From Escherichia phage vB_EcoM_PhAPEC2, in sequence record NC_024794.1: a stretch of DNA of 64,000 nt; one strand, given 5' to 3'. Of the stretch, positions 20,523-44,133 are shown piece by piece. How positions within the stretch are numbered: the first letter of the stretch is position 1; each line of letters starts with the position of its first letter. The position numbers and the translations under genes are program-made. Below the pieces are notes generated by a model. That model was not told the origin of the DNA, did not search any database, and saw nothing but the letters and a program-made list of their open reading frames with translations.

Positions 20523-20562
20523 TTGATAGGTCTATAATAACATAACCATAGACCTTGTAAAC
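20523..20562 (-). promoter_or_regulatory. PeSL-like early promoter cassette (GTTTAC -35, TATTAT/ATTATA -10, conserved CCTATCAA tail)
   Basis: Minus GTTTACAAGGTCTATGGTTATGTTATTATAGACCTATCAAC; one of a repeated family. Confidence 0.4.
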
Positions 20563-20564
20563 AA

Positions 20565-20852
20565 CTAAAAGAAACTTTTTTCGGTATTTTTTCCACTGAA
20601 CCAAACAGACTTCGGGATTTTTTGTAATTTTTCAGATTTAAGTTTCTCTTCCCGTTCTTTCTTATATACACCCTTGTCGTACTGGAGCATCTCTATGGCA
20701 TTCTTTTGCAAACGATCTAAGGTAATTAAGGCTTTAGTTTTTCCTTTCAAGGAAGAGTCCTGGCGAACTTCCTCGCTATATTGCATCGTAGAACTAACCA
20801 TACGATGAGCATACAGTTCTACTGCGGCTTTAATTTTTTGCATAAAATCCAT
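20565..20852 (-). CDS. Hypothetical protein (95 aa)
   Basis: ORF; lysine-rich C-terminus. Confidence 0.45.
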   Translation of the reverse strand: MDFMQKIKAAVELYAHRMVSSTMQYSEEVRQDSSLKGKTKALITLDRLQKNAIEMLQYDKGVYKKEREEKLKSEKLQKIPKSVWFSGKNTEKSFF

Positions 20853-20990
20853 AACATATCCTCTTCGATTTGTACATCATTATTTTTAAATATTTCTATG
20901 CCCTCAGTAAGTTCCTGGTGTCCTTCTTTGAGGTAAGCCATATGATTATTCATCTTTATGGCTTTTGTTACCTCAGAACTTCCTGTAAGC

Positions 20991-21992
20991 TTATTTCAGT
21001 AAAGTTACTTCAGAGATTTCCTCCCAACCATCCTTATCAGTTGAAATAAAATCTGCTACATAAAGAGCCGTACGTAATGATACATTGCGAAGACGAGATA
21101 CGTTAGCCTTCATCCAGGACAATGCTTTGTACGTTTCAGCATCAGTCAAGCCACGTTTCTGCATCATGTCAGTAGATAATATTACATCTTCAACTCGAAC
21201 CATAATCTCTTCATTAGAGTGTACTCCAAGGTCGAGATACACTGAACGAGATACTAAAGCTTGAAGGTGTGGAGCAAGTTTCGAACCGCGTTCTAACTCT
21301 TTATCGATATCAACGTTTGTAATGAAAACGATAGTACCTTCAAACTCAAATTCTTTATCAATACCCTTATCATCGAGATAAGATGACGCAGTGCTCCAAC
21401 AAACTTTGCGTTTATCTCCGGTATCTAATGCTGCTTTAAGAAGGTTCAAGATGTCCATATCTGAGAATACGTCAACGTCGTCGATTAAGAGAACGCTGTC
21501 TGCATCACGGTTGAGCCAAAGTTGTTCGTAAAGGCCAATACCAGAGATTTTACCATTAATGCTTTTGTATTTGATGAAACCGTTATCATTAGCGTTATTA
21601 AGTGCTTTATCCAGAGAATACGTCTTACCAATACCAGCTGCACCTGAAATAATGAGTGAACGAATTTTGCCATCGATAATGCCATTCGTCATCATGTTCA
21701 TTACTTTAAAGCGTTTGTTGATACGAGTTTTCATATCTTCAGTGCTTTCAACAACTGCAACTGGTGACGTCTCAACTCCTTCCATTACGATGTCTGATTT
21801 GAAGACCCATACTCCACGTTCAGAACCATCGATCATAACGAAAATTTTACCATCACCTAAGTGGGAACATTCAGGATTAAGCTTTGCCGGGAACCATGTC
21901 TTTGTGGCAACATAAGAACCAGAGATTTCGTTATTACGATAGATACCTTTTTTGATTTGAACGTTGAACATTTTATTCTCCAATTTACTCAT
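20991..21992 (-). CDS. P-loop NTPase of unknown function
   Basis: 333 aa; Walker A GAAGIGKT and Walker B-like VLLIDDVD; own promoter cassette upstream. Confidence 0.6.
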   Translation of the reverse strand: MSKLENKMFNVQIKKGIYRNNEISGSYVATKTWFPAKLNPECSHLGDGKIFVMIDGSERGVWVFKSDIVMEGVETSPVAVVESTEDMKTRINKRFKVMNMMTNGIIDGKIRSLIISGAAGIGKTYSLDKALNNANDNGFIKYKSINGKISGIGLYEQLWLNRDADSVLLIDDVDVFSDMDILNLLKAALDTGDKRKVCWSTASSYLDDKGIDKEFEFEGTIVFITNVDIDKELERGSKLAPHLQALVSRSVYLDLGVHSNEEIMVRVEDVILSTDMMQKRGLTDAETYKALSWMKANVSRLRNVSLRTALYVADFISTDKDGWEEISEVTLLK

Positions 21993-22000
21993 TTTGTTTC

Positions 22001-22038
22001 GATAGGTCTATAATAACATGTTTAAAGCAAAAGTAAAC
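22001..22038 (-). promoter_or_regulatory. PeSL-like early promoter cassette (GTTTAC-N17-TATTAT; also contains TTTGCTTTA MotA-box-like motif)
   Basis: Minus GTTTACTTTTGCTTTAAACATGTTATTATAGACCTATC. Confidence 0.4.
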
Positions 22039-22040
22039 AA

Positions 22041-22259
22041 TTATTTGCGACGAGATTTTTTGGTAAGAGGTTTAAAGAACACTGCTTTACCGGCTGGGGT
22101 TAAGGTGACTCGTAATGCATTACCGATTCCTAAGGATGCTTTAACCAAACCTTTAGCTTTCAGTTCACCGAATGCTTGACGTTGGTCTGCATCACGAGTG
22201 TTAACCATAAGACCTTTATCACCTGCTTCACGAATCATTTCTAACATTTTGGTTTTCAT
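22041..22259 (-). CDS. Hypothetical small basic protein (72 aa)
   Basis: ATG 22259 with SD AGAGGAGAA (MKTKMLEMIREAGDKG...); track start 22316 is an upstream extension. Confidence 0.45.
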   Translation of the reverse strand: MKTKMLEMIREAGDKGLMVNTRDADQRQAFGELKAKGLVKASLGIGNALRVTLTPAGKAVFFKPLTKKSRRK

Positions 22260-22278
22260 TTTGTTCTCCTCTTGTTTT

Positions 22279-22316
22279 GATAGGTCTATAATAACATATC
22301 CTAAAAACATGTACAC
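22279..22316 (-). promoter_or_regulatory. PeSL-like early promoter cassette
   Basis: Minus GTGTACATGTTTTTAGGATATGTTATTATAGACCTATCAAAAC. Confidence 0.35.
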
Positions 22317-22344
22317 TACTTTTTAAAAATATTTTTACCCCCTA

Positions 22345-22362
22345 AAGGGCCCGAAGGCCCTT
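22345..22362 (-). terminator. UUCG-tetraloop stem-loop after the nucleotidyltransferase gene
   Basis: Minus AGGGCC-UUCG-GGCCCU immediately 3' of the 22364 stop; weak U-tract. Confidence 0.4.
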
Positions 22363-22363
22363 A

Positions 22364-23353
22364 TCATTTATAGTATGAATTGTGGTTTTCTAAATAGACT
22401 TGCTCAAGGAAATCATCCCAGAAACTCATATCTACTTTTTGTTGCATACCGTTCTTAGCGGCTTGTTCCGATGCTTGTTCAACTTGGCCAACGATATCTT
22501 CTAGGAATTCTTGTACAGTTTTAAACGTATGTTTACCAAGCTTAACATCGAGAATAAATGGAGCATCCTGAAGTGGGTAAACAAGGTCACCGGTTTTGTA
22601 AATTTCCAATAGTTGAAGTCCACCACGACATGCATGACTCAATGCTTTCCAGTCAATACCTTCGTTGGCTTCGGCCTTACGAGCACGTTCACCATAGTTC
22701 TCTTCCAGTTTAACCAGGATGGCATTGAACTCTTTATTGGTTAACGTGTCTTGGAATTTACGGTCCAACAGATTATAGAACGTTTGCTTACCCGTTTTCT
22801 CGTTTTCGGTTTCAACCCACGAAGCAAATTCACCTACAGGCAGAACATTCTTCATATGTGATAAACGAATTACTGCACCATTATCAAAGTATTGTCCCCA
22901 TTCATTAGAACGTTTAAGGGCTTGACGAAGAGCAGCCAGTCGAGAACCCTTGACGCCGTATTTAGAAGCTTGCTTACGGACATACCCTAAATAAGATTTC
23001 ATGTTAGTGGTATAGAAACGAGACCTGTTGTCTTGAATATACTTCCACACGTCAGGCAAATCAGATTTAATTACTAGACTTTGTGGAGTGTGAAGCATAT
23101 CTAATGCGACAGTTTCACCATCCGCAGCTAGTTTAAAGAAATATTTGAGACTATATAACTCATGGTCCACGTCGTCTTTTGTGTTCTTAGAAGATGTGTT
23201 ATTCGTGTTCTTGCTCATATGTTCTTTAACGTTACCGGTCAAGATATCACGAGCATGAGGGACATAAATTTCTTTAAAATCGACGTCAGATTCAGGAGTA
23301 GACGTTCCATAAAGGTGGCTACCAAAGTAGCCTTTCATAATTGTTTTCATCAT
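22364..23353 (-). CDS. Pol-beta-superfamily nucleotidyltransferase-like protein
   Basis: 329 aa; N-terminal GS-x10-DVD motif (YFGSHLYGTSTPESDVDF) with downstream hDh (VALDML); helical C-terminal half; SD AAGG. Confidence 0.6.
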   Translation of the reverse strand: MMKTIMKGYFGSHLYGTSTPESDVDFKEIYVPHARDILTGNVKEHMSKNTNNTSSKNTKDDVDHELYSLKYFFKLAADGETVALDMLHTPQSLVIKSDLPDVWKYIQDNRSRFYTTNMKSYLGYVRKQASKYGVKGSRLAALRQALKRSNEWGQYFDNGAVIRLSHMKNVLPVGEFASWVETENEKTGKQTFYNLLDRKFQDTLTNKEFNAILVKLEENYGERARKAEANEGIDWKALSHACRGGLQLLEIYKTGDLVYPLQDAPFILDVKLGKHTFKTVQEFLEDIVGQVEQASEQAAKNGMQQKVDMSFWDDFLEQVYLENHNSYYK

Positions 23354-23823
23354 TTAGCCTTATATTCAAGAGTAGGACAGACTTTTTCTTTACGAGCTTT
23401 AAGGTATTCACCTATTAATGATTTCTTACGTTCAATAGGCTCAAGTCCATTTTTAATTCGTTCTTGGTTTTGTGCAATGAGCTCAACTTCTTTATAATAC
23501 TTCCGCTCTCTGTATAAGTCGATTAGCCACGGTATGCCTAATACTAAAACTATAGAAATACCAACACATAATGCAATGAATAAAACACCTACACCAATTG
23601 AGGCCGGAACTAATGTCCATAAACTACTAAAGACAAAGAATTTAGTTAAAATTTCCTGGCCAACGATTGTGGCCGCTGCTAAAATCGCAAATCCAATAAT
23701 CGAAACAAACAATACCGGGAGAAACGTTTTCCAAAAATAAGCACACAACGTTTTCGGTCGATTCCATGTACTATTAAACGCGGCATAAATTTTAAAGTGC
23801 CAAGAGTTTTCATTGATAATCAT
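23350..23823 (-). CDS. Hypothetical multi-pass membrane protein
   Basis: 157 aa with about 3 hydrophobic segments; ATGA-coupled to the nucleotidyltransferase gene. Confidence 0.55.
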   Translation of the reverse strand: MIINENSWHFKIYAAFNSTWNRPKTLCAYFWKTFLPVLFVSIIGFAILAAATIVGQEILTKFFVFSSLWTLVPASIGVGVLFIALCVGISIVLVLGIPWLIDLYRERKYYKEVELIAQNQERIKNGLEPIERKKSLIGEYLKARKEKVCPTLEYKAK

Positions 23824-23832
23824 AATAATTCC

Positions 23833-24366
23833 TTATTTCAAAGTTGGTATAATAGAATCAAGATAAGCTTTAAGAGCAACTGCTTCATCTTTGTCTAATG
23901 TAATGATATGTTGACGAAGGTCATCAATTTGACGAATAACTACGACATCACCATCTTCATAAGAAGGATTAACTCCTAGGACTGTTGTATAGTCAGGGCG
24001 GTCCTGATTTGTAATAAAAGCATTACGGCATTTAGCCCATTGAAGTTTGGCCTTTTTGGCTGTTTCAGATTCCATTAATTCTTTCACCTTAGTGACGAAT
24101 GTTTTCCAATTATTAATAGAAAAACATTCATCTTCGGTTTCGATATTGGCCGCATTGTAAAGACCAGGATAAAAACGAACTTGGAGGTCTTCACCAATGT
24201 TAATTACCTCTCGACGACGTCCAGACTGATTGAGTTTCAAAATCTTGTCCAGTTCCATAGGAAGAATAGTAGCAGCATCATCTTCTTGTGTCAGAACGTA
24301 CACATAACCACGTTTTTCAATACATAAATCACCGAACAGCTCGGTTGTTTCAATTACGGTTTTCAT
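23833..24366 (-). CDS. Hypothetical protein (about 177 aa)
   Basis: ORF; likely start MKTVIETTEL... at 24366. Confidence 0.5.
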   Translation of the reverse strand: MKTVIETTELFGDLCIEKRGYVYVLTQEDDAATILPMELDKILKLNQSGRRREVINIGEDLQVRFYPGLYNAANIETEDECFSINNWKTFVTKVKELMESETAKKAKLQWAKCRNAFITNQDRPDYTTVLGVNPSYEDGDVVVIRQIDDLRQHIITLDKDEAVALKAYLDSIIPTLK

Positions 24367-24472
24367 ATTATTCACCAATTAAAGTTTCAACAAAATTCAC
24401 CAAAGCATTCTGGCAAGCGTCAACCTGATTTCTATAAAAATTAAATAATATCCATCAATTTATTAGCTTGTT

Positions 24473-24589
24473 CACGGGTCATTTTACCATACTCGTTTCA
24501 ATAAGATTCACTATGCCGTTTACCATGTTATAAGTAAACATCGGATAATTGTATTGTACTACAACATAAGCGATAAGCAAAAGTTTCAT
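24473..24589 (-). CDS. Hypothetical small hydrophobic protein (38 aa)
   Basis: Hand-found ORF MKLLLIAYVVVQYNYPMF... with SD GGAGAA, directly downstream of the promoter cassette at 24608-24646. Confidence 0.3.
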
Positions 24590-24607
24590 TTTGTTCTCCA
24601 TTTGTTT

Positions 24608-24646
24608 TGGTAGGATTACTATATCATAGTCCTACCAAGACGTAAA
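24608..24646 (-). promoter_or_regulatory. PeSL-like early promoter cassette (GTTTAC-N18-TATAGT with dyad GGTAGGACT/AGTCCTACC)
   Basis: Minus GTTTACGTCTTGGTAGGACTATGATATAGTAATCCTACCAAAAC. Confidence 0.4.
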
Positions 24647-24862
24647 CTACCGATTATGTTTTAAAATACTATAAAGAGCTTCTACTTGGCTTGCATCCAG
24701 GTAAATAACATCATCATCTTGCTCAATGGAAATTCCGCCAGTATTACCTTCAACGAAATTACATTCGCATACTTCAACAGTGCGATATACATCACCAACT
24801 GGATGCTCAGGCTCCAGAACAATCACACCATCTTCAGAACAACCGCTTGGGTCATATAACAT
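24647..24862 (-). CDS. Hypothetical small Cys-containing protein (paralog B of MLYD pair)
   Basis: 71 aa from ATG 24862 (MLYDPSGCSEDGVIVLEPE...CECNF...), SD GAGGAAA. Confidence 0.45.
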   Translation of the reverse strand: MLYDPSGCSEDGVIVLEPEHPVGDVYRTVEVCECNFVEGNTGGISIEQDDDVIYLDASQVEALYSILKHNR

Positions 24863-24974
24863 TACAGTTTCCTCGCTAACCATGAAAAGAATAAACCAAT
24901 TAAAACAGGTCCTACAGCCATTGTTAACCAAGCCCAAGGTTCAAGATAATAAATCATCTCATGCTCCTGTGCCA

Positions 24975-25118
24975 TCAGTTTCTTGGTTCACGTTTAAAAA
25001 TTTCATCATGCATTGATTGACAACCAACACAATATATCACCACCATATCATCTTCAGCGCTTTCAGGTAAAAGTTCAAGTACGCCGTCTTCAGATTTTCC
25101 AGTATAATCGTAAAGCAT
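24975..25118 (-). CDS. Hypothetical small Cys-containing protein (paralog A of MLYD pair)
   Basis: 47 aa hand-translated (MLYDYTGKSEDGVLELLPE...CVGCQ...), SD GAGGA; below ORF-track cutoff. Confidence 0.4.
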   Translation of the reverse strand: MLYDYTGKSEDGVLELLPESAEDDMVVIYCVGCQSMHDEIFKREPRN

Positions 25119-25125
25119 AATATCC

Positions 25126-25305
25126 TCACATAATCTCGTTAACATACATTTGCAATTCGGTGTGAGCTTCGGCCATCTTTTTCATAGCTCTGTTAATGTC
25201 GATGTCTCCATCTTCGCAACCATGAGCATTTTCCCAATCAGATACCGCATTAGCGTACTCTTCAATCAAAAACATTAACTTAGAAATTTTTTCTTTACGT
25301 GACAT
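25126..25305 (-). CDS. Hypothetical protein (59 aa)
   Basis: ATG 25305 with SD GAGGAG (MSRKEKISKLMFLIEEYANAVSD...). Confidence 0.45.
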   Translation of the reverse strand: MSRKEKISKLMFLIEEYANAVSDWENAHGCEDGDIDINRAMKKMAEAHTELQMYVNEIM

Positions 25306-25327
25306 AACGTTCTCCTCTAGTAAGTAA

Positions 25328-25361
25328 AGACTACTATAACACAACCTGTGGAGAAGTAAAC
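25328..25361 (-). promoter_or_regulatory. PeSL-like early promoter cassette (GTTTAC-N17-TATAGT)
   Basis: Minus GTTTACTTCTCCACAGGTTGTGTTATAGTAGTC. Confidence 0.45.
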
Positions 25362-25371
25362 TGCTAAATGC

Positions 25372-25399
25372 AAAAAAGCCCCAACCTTTCGGAAGGGGC
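25372..25399 (-). terminator. Rho-independent terminator after rI (GAAA-loop hairpin + U-run)
   Basis: Minus GCCCCUUCCGAAAGGUUGGGGC followed by UUUUUU; same hairpin recurs at 40795 and 41342. Confidence 0.6.
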
Positions 25400-25406
25400 T
25401 AGTAAA

Positions 25407-25709: not shown

Positions 25710-25721
25710 ATAGGCCTCCTG

Positions 25722-28083: not shown

Positions 28084-28542
28084 CTAGATTTTAATCACTG
28101 CTTTAGAAGCTTTTCCTGGTAGTCGTTTATTGTTAATAATAGCCATTCTGCATTGAAGAGTCTTCATTTTGAATGCTGGATTTTCGCGACAAACTGTAAG
28201 TCCTAACCAAAGATTTCCATCAGTTATTTCTAAACGGCCTGGGCGATATTCGACACCTTCGACAAAATCTTCATCAACATCTGGACGTGCCGGCATTGAT
28301 AAAAATTCTGTAACTTCTTTAACATGATTTTTTACTTTACGAAATAATTCAAAAACGTAATTCTCATCTATTTCTCTTTGGATGGCACGATCTAAGAGAT
28401 GTTGAGAATACTTGATATGAAAGCCTGGTAGTCCAAGAGACTTTGCAGCATCTTTTATACCGGCATTGATTTGACGAAACTCCGTTTCAAAGATTCGACG
28501 GAGTTTATTGCGGCGGATAAAAACGTCTGAATTGATAGTCAT
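28084..28542 (-). CDS. regB: RegB site-specific endoribonuclease
   Basis: 152 aa; MTINSDVFIRRNKLRR...YSQHLLDRAIQREIDE...CRMAIINNKRLPGKASKAVIK matches T4 RegB as recalled. Confidence 0.9.
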   Translation of the reverse strand: MTINSDVFIRRNKLRRIFETEFRQINAGIKDAAKSLGLPGFHIKYSQHLLDRAIQREIDENYVFELFRKVKNHVKEVTEFLSMPARPDVDEDFVEGVEYRPGRLEITDGNLWLGLTVCRENPAFKMKTLQCRMAIINNKRLPGKASKAVIKI

Positions 28543-28561
28543 TTTGATTTCTCCTCTAGTT

Positions 28562-28599
28562 GACAGGTCTATAGTAACACAACTAGAGGAGAAGTAAAC
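28562..28599 (-). promoter_or_regulatory. PeSL-like early promoter cassette with 12-bp dyad (CTCCTCTAGTTG/CAACTAGAGGAG) covering the regB SD
   Basis: Minus GTTTACTTCTCCTCTAGTTGTGTTACTATAGACCTGTCAACTAGAGGAG. Confidence 0.45.
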
Positions 28600-30670: not shown

Positions 30671-31249
30671 TTAATTACCACGGGCCGCATTAGCAACGGC
30701 GTAAGCATACTGAACATTAGCGTCCTTAAACGTACCTTTAGAGGTATCTATTTCTGCCTTAAAGCCGCCTTTAGCCATAACATCGGCAAATTCTTTACGG
30801 AAAGCCATTGCATCAAGACCTTTCCATGATGATTTATGCTTGGCAAATTCAAGACCGGCGTAGTTGACAGCTTTAGCCAATTTATTATCAATGACCCATT
30901 TACCGGCTTTAGGCACAAACTTCGGGCCTTTTTGTTTAGAGAACAGTTTTAAATTCCAGCGACGAAGATCACTATCGGCTTTAACAAAAGCTGCGTCTAA
31001 GTTACTAGCAACAACATCTTCAATATGAGCAAATTTAAGTCCGTCAACTTCAATATTTAGATCGTTACGCCAACGTAGTCCTTCCCAAGCGAAGGCTTTA
31101 AAATCAGAAGCTTTTGTGGCTAGATATCGTTCAAGTGGAGCAGTTTTAGGGTCAAAGCCGTTTCCGCCACGATAATTCCACTCGTCCTTATTAATGCCTT
31201 GAGCTTTTCCTGCAAAGGCCTCGGCGATAAATTCTTTATACGTTTTCAT
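30671..31249 (-). CDS. ipIII: Internal head protein, IPIII-like
   Basis: 192 aa; N-terminal capsid-targeting sequence MKTYKEFIAE; basic, Ala/Lys-rich. Confidence 0.7.
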   Translation of the reverse strand: MKTYKEFIAEAFAGKAQGINKDEWNYRGGNGFDPKTAPLERYLATKASDFKAFAWEGLRWRNDLNIEVDGLKFAHIEDVVASNLDAAFVKADSDLRRWNLKLFSKQKGPKFVPKAGKWVIDNKLAKAVNYAGLEFAKHKSSWKGLDAMAFRKEFADVMAKGGFKAEIDTSKGTFKDANVQYAYAVANAARGN

Positions 31250-31279
31250 TTTTGTTTCCTTGTTTGTTTTGATAGAGTA

Positions 31280-31309
31280 ATTATACCATATTAATACTTA
31301 AGCGTAAAC
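31280..31309 (-). promoter_or_regulatory. Early promoter TTTACG-N17-TATAAT upstream of ipIII
   Basis: Minus GTTTACGCTTAAGTATTAATATGGTATAAT. Confidence 0.45.
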
Positions 31310-31435: not shown

Positions 31436-31849
31436 TTAGTAAATTGATTTACCATAGTATTTGTACCAAGTCGGACGTTGAGCAATTTTTTCATCTAAGC
31501 GTGCTTGACTTATCGCAATGGACGCTTCGGACGGGACATAATTATTACGAAATTCGGCAGGGATGTCGGAAATATCCTGGACTGTCGTGTCCTTGATTTT
31601 GAAACCACGTTTCAAACATTCAGCGATTAGCTCGATTTGTCGTAAACGTAAAAATTCGAGTTTGTCGTAAAAGAATGTTACGTGACCTGTGCCTAAGATA
31701 AATGTTGGAGAGATTTTAAAATCCTTTACACGTTTACCATTTTGAACATGTTTACGGACTGCACCGAATACACGAGGTAATTCGCGATACTCAGCCATAA
31801 GATGTTGGTCGGCCAGTTCAGAAACAAGTGTTAAATTGATACGAGTCAT
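31436..31849 (-). CDS. denV: Endonuclease V (pyrimidine-dimer DNA glycosylase)
   Basis: 137 aa from ATG 31849; [35 protein letters not shown]... matches T4 DenV as recalled. Confidence 0.92.
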
Positions 31850-31864
31850 AATTTCCTCCAAGTA

Positions 31865-31906
31865 GTTGATGAATGTATAGTATCAAAACTCTTGGAGGAA
31901 GTAAAC
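31865..31906 (-). promoter_or_regulatory. PeSL-like early promoter cassette upstream of denV
   Basis: Minus GTTTACTTCCTCCAAGAGTTTTGATACTATACATTCATCAACTACTTGGAGGA; dyad CTCCAAG/CTTGGAG covers the SD. Confidence 0.45.
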
Positions 31907-34568: not shown

Positions 34569-34874
34569 TTATTTTCCTCGACATTCTTTAATGAAATTTT
34601 CTAGATTGGTAGATTCAATAGCTTTTTTACGAGCTTCTGCGTGTTCTTCTTCAGACAATTTACGTTTATAATTGACCCAGACATTATGGTCTAAACCAGT
34701 TGTGGCATATAATATCAAAGCTCCGACGAATAATAAAAACGGTGATAAAAATATACAACCAGGAACACCATCCATACTGTAAGCCTTTTGTAATACGGCA
34801 ACAGAAAGAGCTGCGTAAAAAAGCGATGCAAATATTGTAAAAAGACCGATTCGGTTGGTTTCGCCTAATTTCAT
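34569..34874 (-). CDS. Membrane protein, FIKECR-tail family member
   Basis: 101 aa; two hydrophobic segments; C-terminal ...LENFIKECRGK. Confidence 0.55.
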   Translation of the reverse strand: MKLGETNRIGLFTIFASLFYAALSVAVLQKAYSMDGVPGCIFLSPFLLFVGALILYATTGLDHNVWVNYKRKLSEEEHAEARKKAIESTNLENFIKECRGK

Positions 34875-34893
34875 AATATTCTCCTCATGTTTT

Positions 34894-34932
34894 AATAGGA
34901 CTACTATAACATAGTCCTATAATTGTGTAAAC
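34894..34932 (-). promoter_or_regulatory. PeSL-like early promoter cassette (TTTACA-N17-TATAGT with 8-bp dyad ATAGGACT/AGTCCTAT)
   Basis: Minus GTTTACACAATTATAGGACTATGTTATAGTAGTCCTATTAAAAC. Confidence 0.5.
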
Positions 34933-35929: not shown

Positions 35930-36169
35930 TTAAATTTCACGACATGCGATATTATATTCATCCCAGAGGTCATCATGTGAAGCCTCTACCAATGGAACGA
36001 TTGTACCGTTTATGTCTTCATTATAAGGGCAAATTGTACAGTGCGCGTCTTCGAATCGGATGCCTTTGTGTTCAGATTTTTTATAACGCATATCGAATAT
36101 CTTTGCAAACTTTTCACGAGTAATGGTTTTAGCAACCACTTTGGTTCCAATACTTTCGTAATAAATCAT
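35930..36169 (-). CDS. Hypothetical small Cys-containing protein
   Basis: 79-aa ORF, ATG verified at 36169. Confidence 0.5.
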   Translation of the reverse strand: MIYYESIGTKVVAKTITREKFAKIFDMRYKKSEHKGIRFEDAHCTICPYNEDINGTIVPLVEASHDDLWDEYNIACREI

Positions 36170-36188
36170 TGTGGACTCCGTTTAATTT

Positions 36189-36227
36189 GATAGGACTACT
36201 ATAACATAGCCCTATCTTGTTGTAAAC
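36189..36227 (-). promoter_or_regulatory. PeSL-like early promoter cassette (TTTACA-N17-TATAGT)
   Basis: Minus GTTTACAACAAGATAGGGCTATGTTATAGTAGTCCTATCAAATTAAAC. Confidence 0.5.
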
Positions 36228-37026: not shown

Positions 37027-37382
37027 TTTCTACATTCCTTAATAAAGTTTTCAATTGTTTCATTTTCACGTCTAGCTAGGAGTTCATTATAACTAATCAT
37101 TTGAGAAGCGTAAACCTTTTTATTTTTCTTGTTATGGTTTATAAAATCGTAGTAAAAATAGACTACAGTACAAAATGATGCGATGGATGCAAAGGCTTGG
37201 GTGTATCTTAGGTCCTGCCATTGGTCTGTGAATCCACCGGTATTCCCTATAAATCCTAACACAACTCCGTCAATAAGAAATCCAACTAATCCAAAGGCAA
37301 ATCCCATGCCAATACTCATAATAAAAATTAGAATGTTCTCACCAAGAGACGGCCATACGGTTAAGAGTTGAGGCTTTTGCAT
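37023..37382 (-). CDS. Membrane protein, FIKECR-tail family member
   Basis: 119 aa; two TM-like segments; C-terminal ...ENFIKECRK. Confidence 0.5.
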   Translation of the reverse strand: MQKPQLLTVWPSLGENILIFIMSIGMGFAFGLVGFLIDGVVLGFIGNTGGFTDQWQDLRYTQAFASIASFCTVVYFYYDFINHNKKNKKVYASQMISYNELLARRENETIENFIKECRK

Positions 37383-38345: not shown

Positions 38346-38368
38346 CAAAAGGAGGACCGGAGTCCTCC
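38346..38368 (-). terminator. Rho-independent terminator (GGAGGAC-N4-GTCCTCC + U-run)
   Basis: Minus GGAGGACUCCGGUCCUCC followed by UUUUGG. Confidence 0.55.
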
Positions 38369-39011: not shown

Positions 39012-39040
39012 ATTATACTCTGCTCTCAAGAGTTTGTAAA
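39012..39040 (-). promoter_or_regulatory. T4-type early promoter TTTACA-N17-TATAAT (exact duplicate of the one at 9879-9907)
   Basis: Minus TTTACAAACTCTTGAGAGCAGAGTATAAT within a 48-bp block identical to 9863-9910. Confidence 0.6.
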
Positions 39041-39268
39041 TTATTTTTTAATCAAATTGACATAAAACTTGGCGTCTTCCGGGTGCATGCCTTCACAGTA
39101 TTCTTCAACCATGAACTTCTTAACAGCTTCATAAGGACCACTCAGATTAAGCTCAGTTGTCCAGAACTTGGAATCTTGGGCTGAATCGATACGAACTTCA
39201 GGGTGACGGTTGCGAATAACTTCTTCGGTATATTCATAATCAACGACATCAATACTAACTTTAGCCAT
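39041..39268 (-). CDS. Hypothetical protein (75 aa)
   Basis: ORF, start MAKVSID at 39268. Confidence 0.5.
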   Translation of the reverse strand: MAKVSIDVVDYEYTEEVIRNRHPEVRIDSAQDSKFWTTELNLSGPYEAVKKFMVEEYCEGMHPEDAKFYVNLIKK

Positions 39269-39283
39269 TTTGTTTCTCCTCTG

Positions 39284-39326
39284 TAGTTGATAAGTCTATA
39301 GTATCACCATCCTTGGTGCTTGTACA
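39284..39326 (-). promoter_or_regulatory. PeSL-like early promoter cassette (TGTACA-N17-TACTAT)
   Basis: Minus TGTACAAGCACCAAGGATGGTGATACTATAGACTTATCAACTAC. Confidence 0.4.
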
Positions 39327-39334
39327 TCATTATT

Positions 39335-39667
39335 TTATTTTTTCCAACTTAACAACTTGTAGTGTCCTTCATTCGTACGAGGTTTATCCCAAGAAACACT
39401 AATATATGATTCGCTGTCAATAGAAGTCGCCGGGTTTTTCTCTACCGTAAGACCTTCACTTTCCAACCATTCAATAGTATTTGCACATAAATCAGAAGAA
39501 CACCTAATCGGGAACCGGCAAGATTTTTCACCTTTAGCTGCAGTGTTATACATCTTTTCTAAAATACGCTTTTGCACGTTTTTAAAAATAGTTTCAGCAG
39601 ATTCTTCAGATTTTTTATTCAGTTCAGTATAAAGACTCATAACATTCTTCTCATTAATAGGGCTCAT
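39335..39667 (-). CDS. Hypothetical protein (110 aa)
   Basis: ORF; start may be internal (MSLYTELNKK...). Confidence 0.5.
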   Translation of the reverse strand: MSPINEKNVMSLYTELNKKSEESAETIFKNVQKRILEKMYNTAAKGEKSCRFPIRCSSDLCANTIEWLESEGLTVEKNPATSIDSESYISVSWDKPRTNEGHYKLLSWKK

Positions 39668-39697
39668 AATATCTTAATCATGAGCCCATGTACACAT

Positions 39698-39961
39698 TTA
39701 TTTCATATTATTGAAATAATCTTCCGCATCAAAATCGTTATCATGGTAAACTTTGGTAGACGATTTGGCGTAGCCTTCGGCCGAGAACATATTAATCACA
39801 ACTTTAATTGTATACCACTGTCCGTCTTCATTACCCATTACTGCGTAAGTTTCAAACATCGGATGGTCAGGTCCAATAACTTTAATATCATTCACCGTAC
39901 GTCCGAAATCTTCTGGAACACATTTCATAAAGAAGTTGAACAGTTCACCGTAATTATCCAT
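39698..39961 (-). CDS. Hypothetical acidic protein (87 aa)
   Basis: ATG 39961 with SD GGAG (MDNYGELFNFF...). Confidence 0.5.
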   Translation of the reverse strand: MDNYGELFNFFMKCVPEDFGRTVNDIKVIGPDHPMFETYAVMGNEDGQWYTIKVVINMFSAEGYAKSSTKVYHDNDFDAEDYFNNMK

Positions 39962-39989
39962 TTCATTCTCCAAGTTTTTTCTGTATCGG

Positions 39990-40033
39990 TAGTTGATAGT
40001 TGTATAGTACCACGGAAGAACAGGGATGTAAAC
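39990..40033 (-). promoter_or_regulatory. PeSL-like early promoter cassette (TTTACA-N17-TACTAT)
   Basis: Minus GTTTACATCCCTGTTCTTCCGTGGTACTATACAACTATCAACTAC. Confidence 0.45.
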
Positions 40034-40101
40034 AGTTTTGTGAAAAAATTTTTAAAAAGTTCTGGGGAATTCTAGGGCAGGGAGAGGAAAGGCCTAGATA
40101 C

Positions 40102-40130
40102 CAAAAAGCCCTATCATTTAGATAGGGCTT
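40102..40130 (-). terminator. Rho-independent terminator (9-bp stem AGCCCUAUC + U-run) after IP-like gene
   Basis: Minus AGCCCUAUC-UAAAU-GAUAGGGCU followed by UUUUUGG. Confidence 0.55.
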
Positions 40131-40135
40131 TAAAA

Positions 40136-40699
40136 TTATTTACCTAGTTTAGTTATTATAGCTTCGGCAGCAGCTTTTAGCTTAGATGCAGTGTTAATAC
40201 GATTTTTAATTTCAGTATACGCATCGCCAAGAACATCAAGGCTATCAGAATAAACACTTACACTATTGCGTTCGCTATTTGAAATAGAACCTTTAGTTTT
40301 ACGATCAAAATCAGTGTACACGTCTTGAAGATCACGGGCTGCCTTCTTTGCATCATCCAATGCGTCAAGAGCTTTATTCAAAGCATTGACATATTTTTTA
40401 GTGTCAAACATATTCTTAGAAATTTTAACAGGTGCACGTTCAGGAGTAGCTAAGGCGGATTTAGGAACCTGCGTGCCAGATGCCAGTTTCTTAGAAATTT
40501 TGAAAAACGCTTTATTGAAACTATTTTCTTGACTCATCGTAAAAGAACTAGTATCGATGTTATACATTTCAATAGCTTTAGCTTTCCACTTAAGAAAATC
40601 GCCACGGTCTTTTGGATCCAAGTGGAAGAATACTTTAGTAAGATCTGCTTCAGATGGTAATTTTGCTGCTTCGGTTAAAAATTCGGCATAGGTTTTCAT
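40136..40699 (-). CDS. Internal-protein-like head protein (additional IP family member)
   Basis: 187 aa; capsid-targeting-like N-terminus MKTYAEFLTE; own late-promoter-like TAATAAATA about 40 nt upstream and own terminator. Confidence 0.6.
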   Translation of the reverse strand: MKTYAEFLTEAAKLPSEADLTKVFFHLDPKDRGDFLKWKAKAIEMYNIDTSSFTMSQENSFNKAFFKISKKLASGTQVPKSALATPERAPVKISKNMFDTKKYVNALNKALDALDDAKKAARDLQDVYTDFDRKTKGSISNSERNSVSVYSDSLDVLGDAYTEIKNRINTASKLKAAAEAIITKLGK

Positions 40700-40788
40700 T
40701 TAAAATCCTTGAAATAATTTATCGGTTTGTTATTAATTATTTATTACTTTGGTATTATCAGTAACAGCATTCTCCGAGTGAGTCAAAC

Positions 40789-40816
40789 TAAAAAGCCCCA
40801 ACCTTTCGGAAGGGGC
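40789..40816 (-). terminator. Rho-independent terminator (GAAA-loop hairpin + U-run)
   Basis: Minus GCCCCUUCCGAAAGGUUGGGGC + UUUUU; repeat of the 25378 and 41342 hairpin. Confidence 0.6.
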
Positions 40817-40822
40817 ATTCTA

Positions 40823-41287
40823 TTATTTAATTTGTTTAGCAGACCAGATACGGTCTTTAATAAGTTTTTGGATATCTTCAACATACTCAAGGCTATGAGC
40901 GTGAGGATTATCTTTGAAGCTATGTGCTCGTGCCAGTTTCTGGCCTTCTGTTTTGATTACTAAAAGCTCTTTAAGAATTGCTTCATACTTAGAAATAATT
41001 CCTTTGGCGATATTTTTTTCTTGAGCGGCTTTAGGGTCCGCTTTTGGCACAGGTGCTTTACCTGTAGCTTTCTGGAACAATTCACCTGATGCAGCTAGGC
41101 TTTTAAAAACTCGGCTAACAGTATTAGCATTAGTAAAACCTTCGGCTTTAAAATCTCTAATAAAACGGAAACGTTCTTCATCAGAGGCGTCTTTGTAAGA
41201 ATATTTACCTGCTTGAATTGCTGCAATCGCAGCGGCTTTTACATCTGAACTAGATTGTTCAGTCAAAAATTCAGCGTATGATTTCAT
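40823..41287 (-). CDS. Internal-protein-like head protein (additional IP family member)
   Basis: 154 aa; capsid-targeting-like N-terminus MKSYAEFLTE; late-promoter-like TAATAAATA at 41307-41315. Confidence 0.6.
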   Translation of the reverse strand: MKSYAEFLTEQSSSDVKAAAIAAIQAGKYSYKDASDEERFRFIRDFKAEGFTNANTVSRVFKSLAASGELFQKATGKAPVPKADPKAAQEKNIAKGIISKYEAILKELLVIKTEGQKLARAHSFKDNPHAHSLEYVEDIQKLIKDRIWSAKQIK

Positions 41288-41332
41288 GTTGCTTTTCCTA
41301 AGTTAATTAACTTATCTATTTATTATTATGCC

Positions 41333-41363
41333 AAAAAAAAAGCCCCAACCTTTCGGAAGGGGC
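41333..41363 (-). terminator. Rho-independent terminator (GAAA-loop hairpin + 9-U run) ending the tRNA/stable-RNA transcription unit
   Basis: Minus GCCCCUUCCGAAAGGUUGGGGC + UUUUUUUUU. Confidence 0.65.
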
Positions 41364-41365
41364 TA

Positions 41366-41660
41366 TGCCTTGCGGCAACCTTGTCGGGGTTCCACCTGCT
41401 AAGGCAAGTGTTTGTACGAAACGCCGGGATTCGAACCCGGTTATTAAGTAGTTGACGCTACTCAATATTTTTAAAAGGCCATATCTCGACCATATCCGAA
41501 CGTTCCGTCAAAAACGCTACTCGGCTTACGGCAAAGATATTTCCTCGAATCGATAATTCGGTGCGCCGTTTCTGCTGTGATGTAAGGGGATATTAACAAA
41601 TCGTAAAGATTTATTAAGACCAGTCCTTACTCAGGGAACATCAGTCCGACGACTTACCGG
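41366..41660 (-). ncRNA. Candidate small stable RNA(s) (position of T4 rnaC/rnaD species 1/2 RNAs)
   Basis: About 300 nt with no credible ORF, between an ORF and a strong terminator at the 3' end of the tRNA operon; contains tRNA T-arm-like CCGGGTTCGAATCCCGG. Confidence 0.3.
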
Positions 41661-41675
41661 TAGCGACCCGGCTTC

Positions 41676-42020
41676 TTATTTTGACATATCATCAATTTGC
41701 TCTCGACGCCGACGCCATAGATTAATCACTTCATTACCACATTCGGCGTTTGGTATATGACGGCAATAATATAATGATTCGCGTTTCTGGAACCGATGTT
41801 GCAATGGGATTTCGTTTAAAAGGTCTTTACGGTCAAAGTATTCAAAACTAGTTAACCCAGAACGATTTTTAATGAACTTCCAATGTCCAAATTCATTTTG
41901 AACATAGATGTAATCGGCATGCTGATACAACGAATTAATCAATCGGTCTGAAATAACTGTATCATGTTCGTTAAAATAAAACGTTAAATCATGAACTACT
42001 AAGTAAACATTACCTTTCAT
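41676..42020 (-). CDS. Hypothetical protein (114 aa) embedded in tRNA operon
   Basis: ORF between tRNA-Arg and the stable-RNA region; basic C-terminus (WRRRREQ). Confidence 0.45.
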   Translation of the reverse strand: MKGNVYLVVHDLTFYFNEHDTVISDRLINSLYQHADYIYVQNEFGHWKFIKNRSGLTSFEYFDRKDLLNEIPLQHRFQKRESLYYCRHIPNAECGNEVINLWRRRREQIDDMSK

Positions 42021-42039
42021 ATTTTCCTCACTTATTAAA

Positions 42040-42115
42040 TGGTCGAGACAGTAGGGATCGAACCTACGACCTAGGACTTAGAAGGTCCTTGCTCTTCCTT
42101 CTGAGCTATGCCTCG
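42040..42115 (-). tRNA. tRNA-Arg (anticodon UCU)
   Basis: Hand-folded 76-nt cloverleaf incl. encoded CCA: acceptor CGAGGCA/TGTCTCG, D-arm GCTC/GAGC, anticodon loop CTTCTAA, T-arm GTAGG-TTCGATC-CCTAC. Confidence 0.85.
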
Positions 42116-42119
42116 TATT

Positions 42120-42194
42120 TGGCGGACGTGCATGGATTCGAACCATGGGCCAATTGATTAACAGTCAACTGCTCTACCACTGAGCTACACATCC
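42120..42194 (-). tRNA. tRNA-Asn (anticodon GUU)
   Basis: 75-nt cloverleaf GGATGTGTAGCTCAGTGGTAGAGC...CTGTTAA...GGTTCGAATCC...CCA; 4-nt spacer to neighbours. Confidence 0.85.
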
Positions 42195-42198
42195 AAAT

Positions 42199-42273
42199 TG
42201 GTGGCCCTGGCTGGTTTCGATCCAGCTACCTATCAGTTATGAGCTGACAGCTCTCCCATTGAGCTACAGGGCC
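42199..42273 (-). tRNA. tRNA with CAU anticodon (elongator Met or lysidine-type Ile2)
   Basis: 75-nt cloverleaf GGCCCTGTAGCTCAATGGGAGAGC...CTCATAA...GCTGG-ATCGAAA-CCAGC...CCA; G1-C72 pair argues against initiator. Confidence 0.8.
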
Positions 42274-42352
42274 TAAATAACTTTCTATTATGAAAGGCAC
42301 TTTAGAGCACCTTTGGTAATAGAGGGTATGAATTAATAATAACACATAATTC

Positions 42353-42868
42353 TTAAAGCAAATCAATCATTTTAACAGTCGGCAAAACGATTTCTTCTTC
42401 AATATAAGCAAATTCGACACGTTCAACTACACGCAAGAAATCATAATCATAATATTCAGAAGCATGGCCAAGAATATCAGTGAGACCTTCTGATACCAAA
42501 TATCCGTTCTCACGGAACAGGTCAAATACACGTGATTCGTCTTCTTCAGATTTATTGCCGAGGTCGACTTCAATATCAAAGACCTTTTTAATGAATTCTG
42601 GATAAAGCTGGTCTGAGAACAGTCCTTCAACCAAGTATTCATAGATTAAAAGCGAGCAATCACTGAATAGTGTATTACCACAGTAACGTTCAGCTTTAGT
42701 GCTGGAATGACGACTCTTAAATTTCTTCAAGAGATATTTAAACTGCTGGAGCTCATGCTCTTCCACACCAAATAATGTTTTGGTTTTATAGTTGTCACCA
42801 TCATTTTCGTAGGTAGTGACATCAATTACGTAGCCCTTAGGAATTGTACTGCCTAAACAAATATTCAT
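42353..42868 (-). CDS. Hypothetical acidic protein (171 aa)
   Basis: ORF, ATG verified at 42868, SD GGTGAG. Confidence 0.5.
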   Translation of the reverse strand: MNICLGSTIPKGYVIDVTTYENDGDNYKTKTLFGVEEHELQQFKYLLKKFKSRHSSTKAERYCGNTLFSDCSLLIYEYLVEGLFSDQLYPEFIKKVFDIEVDLGNKSEEDESRVFDLFRENGYLVSEGLTDILGHASEYYDYDFLRVVERVEFAYIEEEIVLPTVKMIDLL

Positions 42869-42872
42869 TTAC

Positions 42873-43163
42873 TCACCGTACCATATTAATGTAATTATAT
42901 TCAATGCAACGTAATTTCAAAGGATTCTTGAAAATATCATATTCAAGAGGGCCTTTTTCTGTTTCAATAAAGAAATCAAAGTTAACTGTGTTAAATTTAT
43001 CATCTTCACAGAGTAATTTAACTTGCGAAGATGAACGGTCGATATAAACCTTTTCAACCTCAAAGTTAGTCAGAATACCATAGTCATTAACTAGTGCTTT
43101 AGCTGCACGTTGATCGCTTTCATATCCATTCTCGACAGATTTTACTTTAGCATAAAGAATCAT
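42873..43163 (-). CDS. Hypothetical protein (96 aa)
   Basis: ORF, ATGA-coupled. Confidence 0.5.
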   Translation of the reverse strand: MILYAKVKSVENGYESDQRAAKALVNDYGILTNFEVEKVYIDRSSSQVKLLCEDDKFNTVNFDFFIETEKGPLEYDIFKNPLKLRCIEYNYINMVR

Positions 43164-43522
43164 GAGTGTTCCACCACTTCAAAGGTATGAGCATCAACAA
43201 TATGATACCAGTCAAAATTTTCTTCTGCGTTTTTATAAATTTCGCGAAGAGCCTCAACAGTTTTTCCTGTAGCAACAAGGTCGTCAATACCACCAAGAGG
43301 ATAACAGTCATAACCAGCAAACAGAAGGAAATTAATAGTTTCTGTAGGTTCTGGATGCAGAACTCCGTTATCGTCTACCACTTCAAAGAAAGTGTAAGAA
43401 GGAGTACAAGTTTTAATCCAGGCCCATGCTTGAGCCGCTGAATCAAATGGTCTGCGTATCAAACGACAATCAGGGTCTTTAGAAGGATTTGCTTCAAAAT
43501 CCGCATATACATGATATTTCAT
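43160..43522 (-). CDS. Hypothetical protein (120 aa)
   Basis: ATG 43522 with SD AAAGGTGAG (MKYHVYADFEANPSKDP...). Confidence 0.5.
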   Translation of the reverse strand: MKYHVYADFEANPSKDPDCRLIRRPFDSAAQAWAWIKTCTPSYTFFEVVDDNGVLHPEPTETINFLLFAGYDCYPLGGIDDLVATGKTVEALREIYKNAEENFDWYHIVDAHTFEVVEHS

Positions 43523-43523
43523 T

Positions 43524-43709
43524 TTACTCACCTTTTGCAATTTTATCCATAACGATAGCGATTAAGCCGATTAGAAATGCTACTACCAATGAGATAGAGT
43601 TTTCAGTTGTTGTCAGTAGTCCACAAATGAATCCTACAAACATCGAAAAACTAAAAGCCATTGAAGCAATTACTACAGCAACATTACGAATCAGTTCAGC
43701 GCGTTTCAT
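43524..43709 (-). CDS. Hypothetical small membrane protein
   Basis: 61 aa from ATG 43709 (SD TGGAGAAA); two hydrophobic segments. Confidence 0.45.
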   Translation of the reverse strand: MKRAELIRNVAVVIASMAFSFSMFVGFICGLLTTTENSISLVVAFLIGLIAIVMDKIAKGE

Positions 43710-43737
43710 TTTATTTCTCCATTTACTCATTTGTTTT

Positions 43738-43776
43738 GATAGGACTACTATAACATAGTCCTATCGTGTTGTAAAC
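43738..43776 (-). promoter_or_regulatory. PeSL-like early promoter cassette (TTTACA-N17-TATAGT)
   Basis: Minus GTTTACAACACGATAGGACTATGTTATAGTAGTCCTATCAAAAC. Confidence 0.5.
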
Positions 43777-43779
43777 TAC

Positions 43780-44067
43780 TTACAGAAGAGTTTTTGCAAT
43801 AATTTTAAGCTGAGCTACAGAAATATGCTTAGCTTTAAACAGTGCGGTCTCTTCAGCCGGAGAGATAACAATAGTAGCGCCGTCTTTCTTAGCAGACCAT
43901 CCGTCCCCTAAGTAAACAGTACCTTTTACTTCTTCACCGTCAACCAGACTAATCATTGGTTTACCCTCACGTCCTTTATTTGTTTTAATAACTTCAGAAG
44001 TAAGGGATGCTTCGGTCAGAGTAGAAACGTTAGCAACAGGTGATATAAATTCTTTATAGGTTTTCAT
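43780..44067 (-). CDS. ipI: Internal head protein IPI-like
   Basis: 95 aa (same length as T4 IPI); capsid-targeting-like N-terminus MKTYKEFIS...TLTE; SD AAGGAAAT. Confidence 0.7.
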   Translation of the reverse strand: MKTYKEFISPVANVSTLTEASLTSEVIKTNKGREGKPMISLVDGEEVKGTVYLGDGWSAKKDGATIVISPAEETALFKAKHISVAQLKIIAKTLL

Positions 44068-44092
44068 TTTATTTCCTTGAGGCTGTTTATTT

Positions 44093-44133
44093 GATAGGAT
44101 GATAGTATCACACCATCATCCTTATGTAAACTG
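44093..44133 (-). promoter_or_regulatory. PeSL-like early promoter cassette (TTTACA-N17-TACTAT)
   Basis: Minus GTTTACATAAGGATGATGGTGTGATACTATCATCCTATCAAATAAAC. Confidence 0.45.

Follow-up and report, generated by a model that had tools for sequence, protein, structure and literature searches.

The window analysed here, a stretch of 64,000 nucleotides (nt) from Escherichia phage vB_EcoM_PhAPEC2 (NC_024794.1), carries on its minus strand a family of short cassettes, each consisting of a putative early promoter followed by a Shine-Dalgarno (SD) sequence and the ATG of an open reading frame (ORF), and many with an inverted repeat embedded in the promoter itself. Judging from its sequence, the window belongs to an RB69-like Mosigvirus, a coliphage of the T4 family: across nrdC-tk-vs-regB-denV-e-tRNA-ipI-57B it is 95.8% identical to RB69 and 98% identical to phage ST2, and identity to T4 is approximately 83%, in the alignable parts only. 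The homologous RB69 stretch contains nrdC.5-nrdC.11, mobD.1, tk.1, rI, tk, vs, regB, vs.4-vs.8, denV, e, nudE, e.2-e.8, two tRNAs, tRNA.2-4, ipI, 57B, 57A and gene 1, all on the strand that corresponds to the minus strand of the window and mixed with many RB69ORFxxx genes. It is the variable early region that is classical for genomes of the T4 family (Mosigvirus).

A sequence-only reading of the window had placed at least 13 cassettes on the minus strand between 20523 and 44133. All 13 were found where it had put them, each directly upstream of an ORF, and a two-block position weight matrix (PWM) built from these 13 and scanned over the window added a fourteenth (31247-31309, with its -10 at 31285), as well as weaker minus-strand cassettes at 18894, 17874, 15509 and 11012; the scan gave no plus-strand site in the window. 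When anchored on the -10, the cassettes align to the consensus (A/G)nnG-TTTAC(A/T)-16/17 nt-TGn-TA(T/C)(T/A)(A/G)T-AG(A/T)CCTATCAA...GGAG...ATG, and every one of the 14 has an SD and an ATG at its 3' end. The -35 had been read as GTTTAC, which is exact in 11 of the 13 (the cassettes at 22279 and 39284 carry GTGTAC or ATGTAC), and the spacer as 17 or 18 nt; measured from the TTTACA hexamer, it is 16 or 17 nt in 14/14. The TG is invariant, as are T at -12, A at -11 and T at -7, and the G at -36 contributes 1.8 bits. Upstream of the -35, 26 nt are 75% A+T (40% A) compared to 62% A+T in the window, with a recurrent motif cacAAAAc(t/a)G. The tail previously proposed to follow the -10 did not hold up: it is exact in only 2 of the 13 cassettes, plus one site outside their range, and is replaced here by AG(A/T)CCTATCAA.

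Could these simply be strong sigma-70 promoters, with dyads that arose by chance complementarity in AT-rich DNA or by passive copying of one cassette? A generic sigma-70 scan of this AT-rich region is uninformative (69 sites versus 65.9 in shuffles), and the lack of an excess counts for this view. The longer motifs behave differently: the window has 19 minus-strand and 2 plus-strand copies of GTTTAC-N16-18-TANNNT, the N17 form of this motif is observed 5 times against 0.2 expected, and the -10 with its tail (3 mismatches or fewer) is observed 15 times against 2.8 expected, with 0/100 shuffles giving as many. Moreover, the two hexamers hold 14.8 bits, whereas the other 68 aligned columns hold 38.0 bits, compared to 10.5 +/- 1.0 in random 14-sequence alignments, so that the similarity among the cassettes far exceeds what the sigma-70 consensus alone explains.

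The positions agree with published predictions for RB69. By means of a hidden Markov model (HMM), 58 RB69 early promoters were predicted, with coordinates in Additional file 3 (Nolan et al. 2006, PMC1524935), and all 14 cassettes map onto them with one-to-one positional orthology and 93-100% identity. Over 45 nt, the core of the tRNA.4 cassette matches a different RB69 cassette (Pe:76812) at 100% identity. A preference of RB69 early promoters for C from -3 through -1 has been remarked on (Nolan et al. 2006, PMC1524935). The portions of that paper's text available to us contain 0 occurrences of stem-loops or palindromes, giving coordinates and a sequence logo only. This phage differs from RB69 in lacking RB69ORF145c together with one cassette, and in carrying a different ipI module. 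T4 early promoters, for their part, combine UP, -35, TGn and -10 elements with extra conserved positions (Hinton 2010, PMC2988021). The cassettes resemble them in the GTTTAC -35, the TGn extended -10, the A-rich UP-like region and the additional conserved positions, and also in lying upstream of early genes, exclusively in the orientation of early transcription. T4's own orthologous promoters share the layout, the presence of helices and a CTATCAA start region, with ...CTATCAAC... after the -10. The cassettes here depart from T4 in that the -10 is mostly TATAGT, TACTAT or TATTAT and the start region AG(A/T)CCTATCAA, preferences of the RB69 lineage. The primary papers on the T4 consensus are those of Liebig and Rueger 1989 and of Wilkens and Rueger. 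In the literature searched, we found no maps of T4 or RB69 transcription start sites.

To characterise the embedded dyads, we folded each cassette from its -35 to an ATG downstream of the -10. A stable helix was obtained in 8 of the 13 (z of -1.9 at 20539 and -3.2 to -6.3 at 24623, 28576, 31882, 34908, 36203, 43752 and 44107). The inverted repeats had been described as spanning the spacer or -10 and the downstream SD, and the example given for this, CTCCTCTAGTTG/CAACTAGAGGAG, is exact; however, involvement of the SD is confined to cassettes 28576 and 31882, and weakly 40009. Two helix layouts can be distinguished. In type I, an arm in the spacer pairs with a segment running from the last base of the -10 to about +3, while in type II the SD pairs with an arm that directly follows the -35. 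As a set, the cassettes surpass 3000 random 61-nt windows of the region in stability (p = 0.004), and spacers pair better with their own downstream segments than with those of the other 12 cassettes (-11.33 versus -8.25 +/- 0.9 kcal/mol, p = 0.0002). Because the transcript of a cassette's own promoter begins 3' of the 5' arm, the embedded helices would form only in RNA from an upstream promoter.

The type I helix, the commoner of the two, is exemplified by GATAGGACTA paired with TAGTCCTATC, its loop consisting of the TGn and most of the -10, and its dyad axis separates the first two bases of the -10, in T4 as in the RB69-like lineages. Ending at approximately +3, it does not engage the SD. When 22 distinct type I cassettes, taken from this phage, five of its Mosigvirus relatives and T4, are aligned without gaps, the helix comprises 13 pairs, with 89% of cells paired and 8 pairs altered on both sides; 0/500 shuffles scored as high, and sliding the register reduces the paired fraction to 28-64%. 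At one position, the orthologs of cassette 24623 provide a series of A-U, G.U and G-C, and the stem of cassette 36203 includes a G.U pair that is possible in sense RNA alone. The T4 helices at the orthologous mobD-region and ipI-region promoters use different arms, pairing GTTGACAAGATT with AATCTTGTCAAC and GATGAGGTA with TACCTCATC. The helices are under selection, as shown by compensatory change across lineages, and the diversity of the arms is plain by eye; since such change shows selection, we regard the helices as functional parts of the cassettes and not as accidents. The notion of plain promoters with fortuitous dyads draws some support from the five cassettes without a helix and from the type I cassettes 34908, 36203 and 43752, which have nearly identical cores and are not independent. 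It is countered by the 38 bits outside the hexamers, by the cassette-specific pairing (p = 0.0002), by the double changes at 8/13 helix positions, and by regB and denV helices that differ in sequence across 5 and 14 lineages, respectively, and we give it almost no credence.

Selection on a dyad could also act at the level of DNA, with the type I repeat serving as an operator for a dimeric phage protein, or as a cruciform for a structure-specific factor such as an early-promoter shut-off agent or a recombination protein. The mechanism by which early promoters are shut off after approximately 3 minutes is called unknown in reviews (PMC2988021, PMC3014915), Arbiol et al. speculated on a recombination protein that binds stem-loops, and the constant place of the dyad axis relative to the -10 in T4 and RB69-like phages would suit such a site. 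The arms, on the other hand, vary by compensation (GATAGGACTA, AGGTCTAT, AGGATGAT, GTTGACAAGATT, GATGAGGTA), there are more G.U than A.C pairs, and in most cases the sense strand folds more stably than the antisense. Cruciforms form poorly from stems of 9-11 bp with loops of 6-8 nt. In addition, the five cassettes of the same family without a dyad would, by analogy with T4, be expected to shut off in the same way. A DNA-level site is thus very unlikely in our view, and a sequence-specific operator was discarded as the principal reading, given that the arms show no conservation of sequence.

A less improbable alternative would have the hairpins serve as the terminator or attenuator part of composite promoter-terminator elements, which would halt transcription coming from upstream and in this way insulate each gene cassette. 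This is the original reading of the promoter early stem-loop (PeSL) elements of phages RB49 and phi1, in which a stem-loop reduced expression of a downstream lacZ about as much as rrnB T1, and in which stem-loops overlapping the -10 or the spacer form the commonest class. True terminator-like hairpins also lie directly upstream of two cassettes here (22345-22362 and 25371-25400). The embedded helices look different: all eight lack a U-tract after them, and the 8 nt that come next are A-rich (e.g., AAAACAAA and ATCAAAAT); their stems are AT-rich, with minimum free energies of -13.6 to -17 kcal/mol for the type I cassettes; and a terminator scan gave no match at any cassette. The end of each type II helix falls in the SD, 5-10 nt ahead of the ATG, a placement that fits translational masking better than termination. 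As intrinsic terminators, then, the embedded helices were rejected by sequence criteria, and we consider the insulating role improbable. An Rfam 15 scan of the whole window at gathering score returned three tRNAs only and no family match at the cassettes.

In the type II helix at regB, TTCTCCTCTAGTTG pairs with CAACTAGAGGAGAA, and the computed probability that the SD is unpaired is 0.000 in read-through RNA versus 0.62 in the gene's own transcript; the corresponding values are 0.000 versus 0.24 for denV, 0.001 versus 0.67 for cassette 11012 and 0.04 versus 0.39 for e.8. In cassette 11012, an outer 5-bp helix (TCCTC with the SD GAGGA) encloses an inner 9-bp helix. The idea that all such cassettes would sequester the ribosome-binding site in read-through transcripts is thus retained as a prediction for regB, denV, cassette 11012 and, weakly, e.8, and fails for the other ten of the 13. 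The masking helix of regB is kept in 5 lineages with different inner sequences, and own pairing exceeds cross pairing (-20.8 versus -12.1 kcal/mol), with 1/120 permutations as good. For denV, the probability of an unpaired SD among 14 lineages is 0.02 or below in read-through RNA in 13 of them and 0.13-0.94 in the own transcript, and own pairing again exceeds cross pairing (-14.33 versus -10.20 +/- 0.74; 0/100000 permutations as good). In some denV lineages, the 5' arm is shifted from the spacer to the -10..+3 segment, following the same logic, and the orthologous T4 helices use different arms (TCCTCTTGACTG/CAGTTAAGAGGA at regB, TCTCCTGTAG/CTACAGGAGA at denV). These own-versus-cross duplex tests were adopted because the regB arms shift in alignment register; MAFFT with RNAalifold recovered only the SD/anti-SD pairs of the regB cassettes.

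The pairing at regB and denV and its conservation are shown by these comparisons. Given that the type II helix pairs the SD, read-through mRNA would be translationally silent, and from this we infer that regB and denV would be translated only from their own early promoters. The regB promoter is a typical early promoter, which in T4 is off after 2-3 min, and GGAG can be shielded from RegB by RNA structure (Uzan and Miller 2010, PMC3014915). A comparable device is known at the T4 e, soc, 49 and I-TevI genes, where a late promoter lies inside an SD-masking hairpin (Uzan and Miller 2010, PMC3014915). As there, the long transcript is predicted to pair the SD and the proximal promoter to start 3' of the 5' arm; unlike there, where the late promoter delays expression, the early promoter at regB and denV is predicted to confine translation to the early burst. 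In the reviews and papers searched, we found no description of an early-promoter gate at regB or denV, although the older literature may contain one.

As had been suggested, the cassettes are similar to PeSLs, and it is the T-even form that fits: TTTACW-N17-TAYWAT, AT-rich stems, and an SD and ATG at the 3' end (Comeau et al. 2014; Arbiol et al. 2010). T-even PeSL analogues have AT-rich, variable stems (Arbiol et al. 2010). The elements described in phi1/RB49 (Arbiol et al. 2010) and in PST/T4 and nt-1/KVP40 (Comeau et al. 2014) likewise join a strong early promoter, a stem-loop, an SD and an ATG, and precede small or unknown ORFs in hyperplastic regions, whose counterpart here is the variable nrdC-tk-vs-e-tRNA-ipI region. 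There are differences too. The published PST/T4 stem-loops are drawn just upstream of the promoter, whereas here they are mostly inside it, and unlike the GC-rich stems of RB49/phi1, those of this phage have no polyG/polyC and no U-tract, and their sequence does not predict terminator activity. On present evidence, the cassettes are best assigned to the T4-type class of early promoters, as probable T-even analogues of PeSLs.

With regard to recombination, we compared the window with six Mosigvirus relatives to find insertions and deletions (indels). As in PeSLs, a crossover between the -10 and the ATG of two cassettes can delete the ORF between them. In this phage, the absence of RB69ORF145c and one cassette is explained by a crossover in a GAGGA..ACAAAATG segment, between SD and ATG, that two cassettes have in common, and the hybrid cassette at 39266..39327 is the footprint of a cassette-by-cassette deletion. 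Mini-circle junctions were reported in the same SD-ATG zone (Arbiol et al. 2010). Phage 348Ecol098PP lacks ORF102c, with a junction at 22029, in the -10/tail core common to cassettes 22293 and 22015. Three relatives show a replacement of the ipI-type gene that lies between cassettes 43752 and 44107; its junctions are in the spacer of one cassette and 22 nt into the ORF below the other, which fits the shuffling at the IP locus (Repoila et al. 1994, as cited in Arbiol et al. 2010). Altogether, 8 of 38 distinct breakpoints lie in cassettes, which make up 5.2% of the sequence (p = 0.0006), an enrichment relative to the region as a whole only.

Taken together, we consider it probable that these are immediate-early promoter/translation-initiation cassettes of an RB69-like T4-family phage, with helices that form in read-through RNA and with occasional crossovers between copies. 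Each would comprise, in order, a UP-like stretch rich in A/T, G-TTTAC(A/T) at the -35, a spacer of 16-17 nt, an extended -10 made up of TGn and TA(T/C)(T/A)(A/G)T, a start region AG(A/T)CC-T-A(+1)-TCAA, a leader of 20-30 nt, a GGAG SD and the ATG. By sequence and by orthology to T4/RB69 early promoters, host sigma-70 RNA polymerase would fire the cassettes in the first minutes of infection. Most would carry a superimposed helix, formed only in RNA read through from an upstream promoter. In the type II cassettes (regB, denV and 10976-11035), the spacer would pair with the SD, so that the gene would be expressed only during the early burst; in type I, it would pair with the segment from the last -10 base to +3, leaving the SD free and perhaps marking a boundary in read-through RNA. 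At the DNA level, cassettes of 40-90 bp would act as dispersed direct repeats between which phage recombination sometimes crosses over, deleting or swapping the gene between two of them, as a few junctions show.

Several observations weigh against this explanation. Folding gave no significant helix in 5 of the 13 cassettes (22015, 22293, 25338, 39303 and 40009), so the helix is not needed for promoter function, and the +1 was assumed to lie 7 nt after the -10. Among 52 cassettes, the sense strand is more stable in 33 and the antisense strand in 17 (binomial p = 0.03, for sequences that are related), and in the window alone the difference between sense and antisense stability averages approximately 0. 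The type I stems contain 12 G.U cells and 5 A.C cells. Together, these figures tilt the choice between RNA and DNA only slightly towards sense RNA. The significance of the covariation counts against shuffles is inflated, given that they come from related sequences. For the type I helix, a role at cistron boundaries in read-through RNA, whether in attenuation, pausing or 3'-end stabilisation, is conjecture. As for recombination, a 595-nt insertion in ECO111 has the hairpin at 25371-25400 duplicated at both ends, and a 662-nt insertion in a relative encodes a homing-endonuclease-like ORF; both indels were rejected as cassette-mediated, in view of the duplicated terminator hairpin and the homing-endonuclease-like ORF involved. 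Compared to other non-coding DNA, moreover, cassettes are not enriched in breakpoints (8/20 versus 38% expected, p = 0.5). Of the modular shuffling that has been proposed for elements of this type, there remain the junctions inside cassettes in several relatives, without any excess over other intergenic DNA.

Since the family, its RB69 positions and its proposed role in shuffling have all been published, the finding is largely already explained. The analysis adds evidence that the helices are conserved by compensation across genera; modestly new is the conserved early-promoter gate predicted at regB and denV. The main value of the analysis is the correct annotation of an RB69-like genome. The gate, if true, would explain why the synthesis of an RNase and a repair enzyme is limited to the first minutes even though longer transcripts cross their genes, and the breakpoint statistics call for caution over PeSLs as drivers of shuffling: crossovers in this region do make use of cassettes, yet not in excess of other intergenic DNA. 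More broadly, and only tentatively, T4-family early genes might share a conserved regulatory layer, of which we found no explicit description, consisting of an own-promoter-only gate at regB, denV and some other genes and of a distinct type I helix locked to the -10, the latter being either an RNA element at cistron boundaries or, less likely, tied to the shut-off of early promoters; we think this rather doubtful as a whole.

Table 1. Putative early-promoter cassettes and adjacent hairpins. Numbers in brackets identify the cassettes in the text; z refers to folding; RB69 promoters are positional orthologs.
Feature	Coordinates	Strand	Dyad or hairpin	z	RB69 promoter
Cassette (11012), outside 20523-44133	10976..11035	-	fold predicted to mask the SD in read-through RNA	-3.2	
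nrdC.8 cassette (20539)	20504..20562	-	type I-like; arms 20545-20555 and 20528-20538, core AGGTCTAT/ATAGACCT	-1.9	Pe:53683
nrdC.10 cassette (22015)	21969..22038	-	no significant dyad	+0.25	Pe:55018
RB69ORF102c-homolog cassette (22293), -35 TGTACA	22257..22316	-	no significant dyad		Pe:55296
GC-rich palindromic hairpin, terminator-like, just upstream of cassette 22293, after nrdC.11 stop	22345..22362		GGGCCTTCGGGCCC		
Cassette (24623), upstream of 36-40 amino acid (aa) ORF and tk.1	24587..24647	-	type I; arms 24626-24641 and 24604-24619, TTGGTAGGA/TCCTACCAA	-4.5	Pe:57689
mobD.2a cassette (25338)	25303..25361	-	weak helix only	+0.66	Pe:58138
Intrinsic-terminator-like hairpin with T6, just upstream of cassette 25338	25371..25400	-	AGCCCCTTCCGAAAGGTTGGGGCTTTTTT		
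regB cassette (28576)	28540..28599	-	type II; arms 28580-28593 (just after -35) and 28549-28562 (SD GAGGAG), 14 bp, -21.6 kcal/mol	-5.1	Pe:61376
Fourteenth cassette (31285), upstream of 192-aa internal-head-protein-like ORF; -10 TATAAT	31247..31309	-	no dyad		Pe:64193
denV cassette (31882)	31847..31906	-	type II; core TTCCTCCAAG (31891-31900) with CTTGGAGGAA (31853-31862)	-6.1	Pe:64934
RB69ORF133c-homolog cassette (34908)	34872..34932	-	type I; arms 34911-34920 and 34895-34904	-4.4	Pe:67959
RB69ORF135c-homolog cassette (36203)	36167..36227	-	type I; arms 36206-36216 and 36189-36199	-3.9	Pe:69254
Hybrid cassette (39303), RB69ORF145c promoter joined to frd.3 start	39266..39327	-	5-bp hairpin within spacer, 39305-39318		
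e.8 cassette (40009), long leader	39959..40033	-	no strong helix	+0.2	Pe:73274
tRNA.4 cassette (43752)	43707..43776	-	type I; arms 43755-43765 and 43738-43748, GATAGGACTAT/GTAGTCCTATC	-6.3	
ipI-type internal protein gene cassette (44107)	44065..44131	-	shifted register; arms 44111-44122 and 44096-44107, core AGGATGAT/ATCATCCT	-3.2	Pe:77187

Some features of the cassettes and their surroundings are worth recording separately. Besides types I and II, there is a third layout: three minus-strand promoters, at 39305-39318 and in the regions of 17874 and 18894, have a near-identical spacer, (C)ACCAAGGATGGT(G), which forms a hairpin of 4-5 bp wholly inside the spacer. GGAG is present in 12 of 13 cassette SDs. 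The full RegB/S1 site, GGAGRAYARAA as defined by Durand et al. 2006, is matched by cassettes 22015, 22293 and 24623 (e.g., at 21975-21985, 22263-22273 and 24593-24603), and RegB therefore probably targets the mRNAs of these three; GGAGGAAATTA, the SD of denV, departs from the site, in agreement with the RegB resistance of T4 denV. Further minus-strand GTTTAC-N17-TAnnnT sites lie outside the PWM family, one with TTTACG-17-TATAAT at 37114-37086 and another near 42008, upstream of the tRNAs; these two sites (37086-37115 and approximately 42008) coincide with, or lie close to, breakpoints of indels in relatives (37115 and 42031). The indel junctions of 348Ecol098PP and phi25-307 at 22366-22370 lie beside the hairpin at 22345-22362. 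A perfect GC-rich palindrome, GGAGGACCGGAGTCCTCC, with a terminator-like score on both strands, occupies 38351-38368, inside or at the end of the e.5/e.6 region.

The relatives contain extra genes that are not early-promoter cassettes (locus 6732-7328 and 17525-18188 in ECO111, locus 3530-3903 in 348Ecol098PP). An ORF of approximately 185 aa and a signal-peptide-like ORF of 93 aa are each preceded by TATAAATA, the T4 late-promoter consensus, and a homing-endonuclease-like ORF of approximately 200 aa with CxxC...SCGC motifs is inserted exactly at the -35 of the ortholog of cassette 34908. In the window itself, 24688-25029 holds a 340-nt segment, inside the RB69ORF107c homolog, in place of a 72-96-nt one present in all six close relatives examined. 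The same 340 nt are found at 99% identity in coliphages AV110, TH58 and ZQ3, with approximately 100 records in all, and because the segment recurs in other coliphages, we regard it as an alternative allele or module and not as a unique insertion. Three tandem tRNA genes (Rfam tRNA, 62-75 bits) lie on the minus strand at 42043-42273; at this locus, ST2 carries three (Arg, Asn, Met), compared to two (Arg, Met) in RB69 and in 348Ecol098PP, and the borders of the tRNA genes (42031-42228) coincide with several indel breakpoints between relatives. Finally, the GenBank record of ST2 (OM982647.1), a 171-kb T4-like genome, is filed under Guernseyvirinae; Kagunavirus and labels many ORFs 'thioredoxin', and since its sequence is 98% identical to this Mosigvirus window, both the taxonomy and the labels look like annotation errors.

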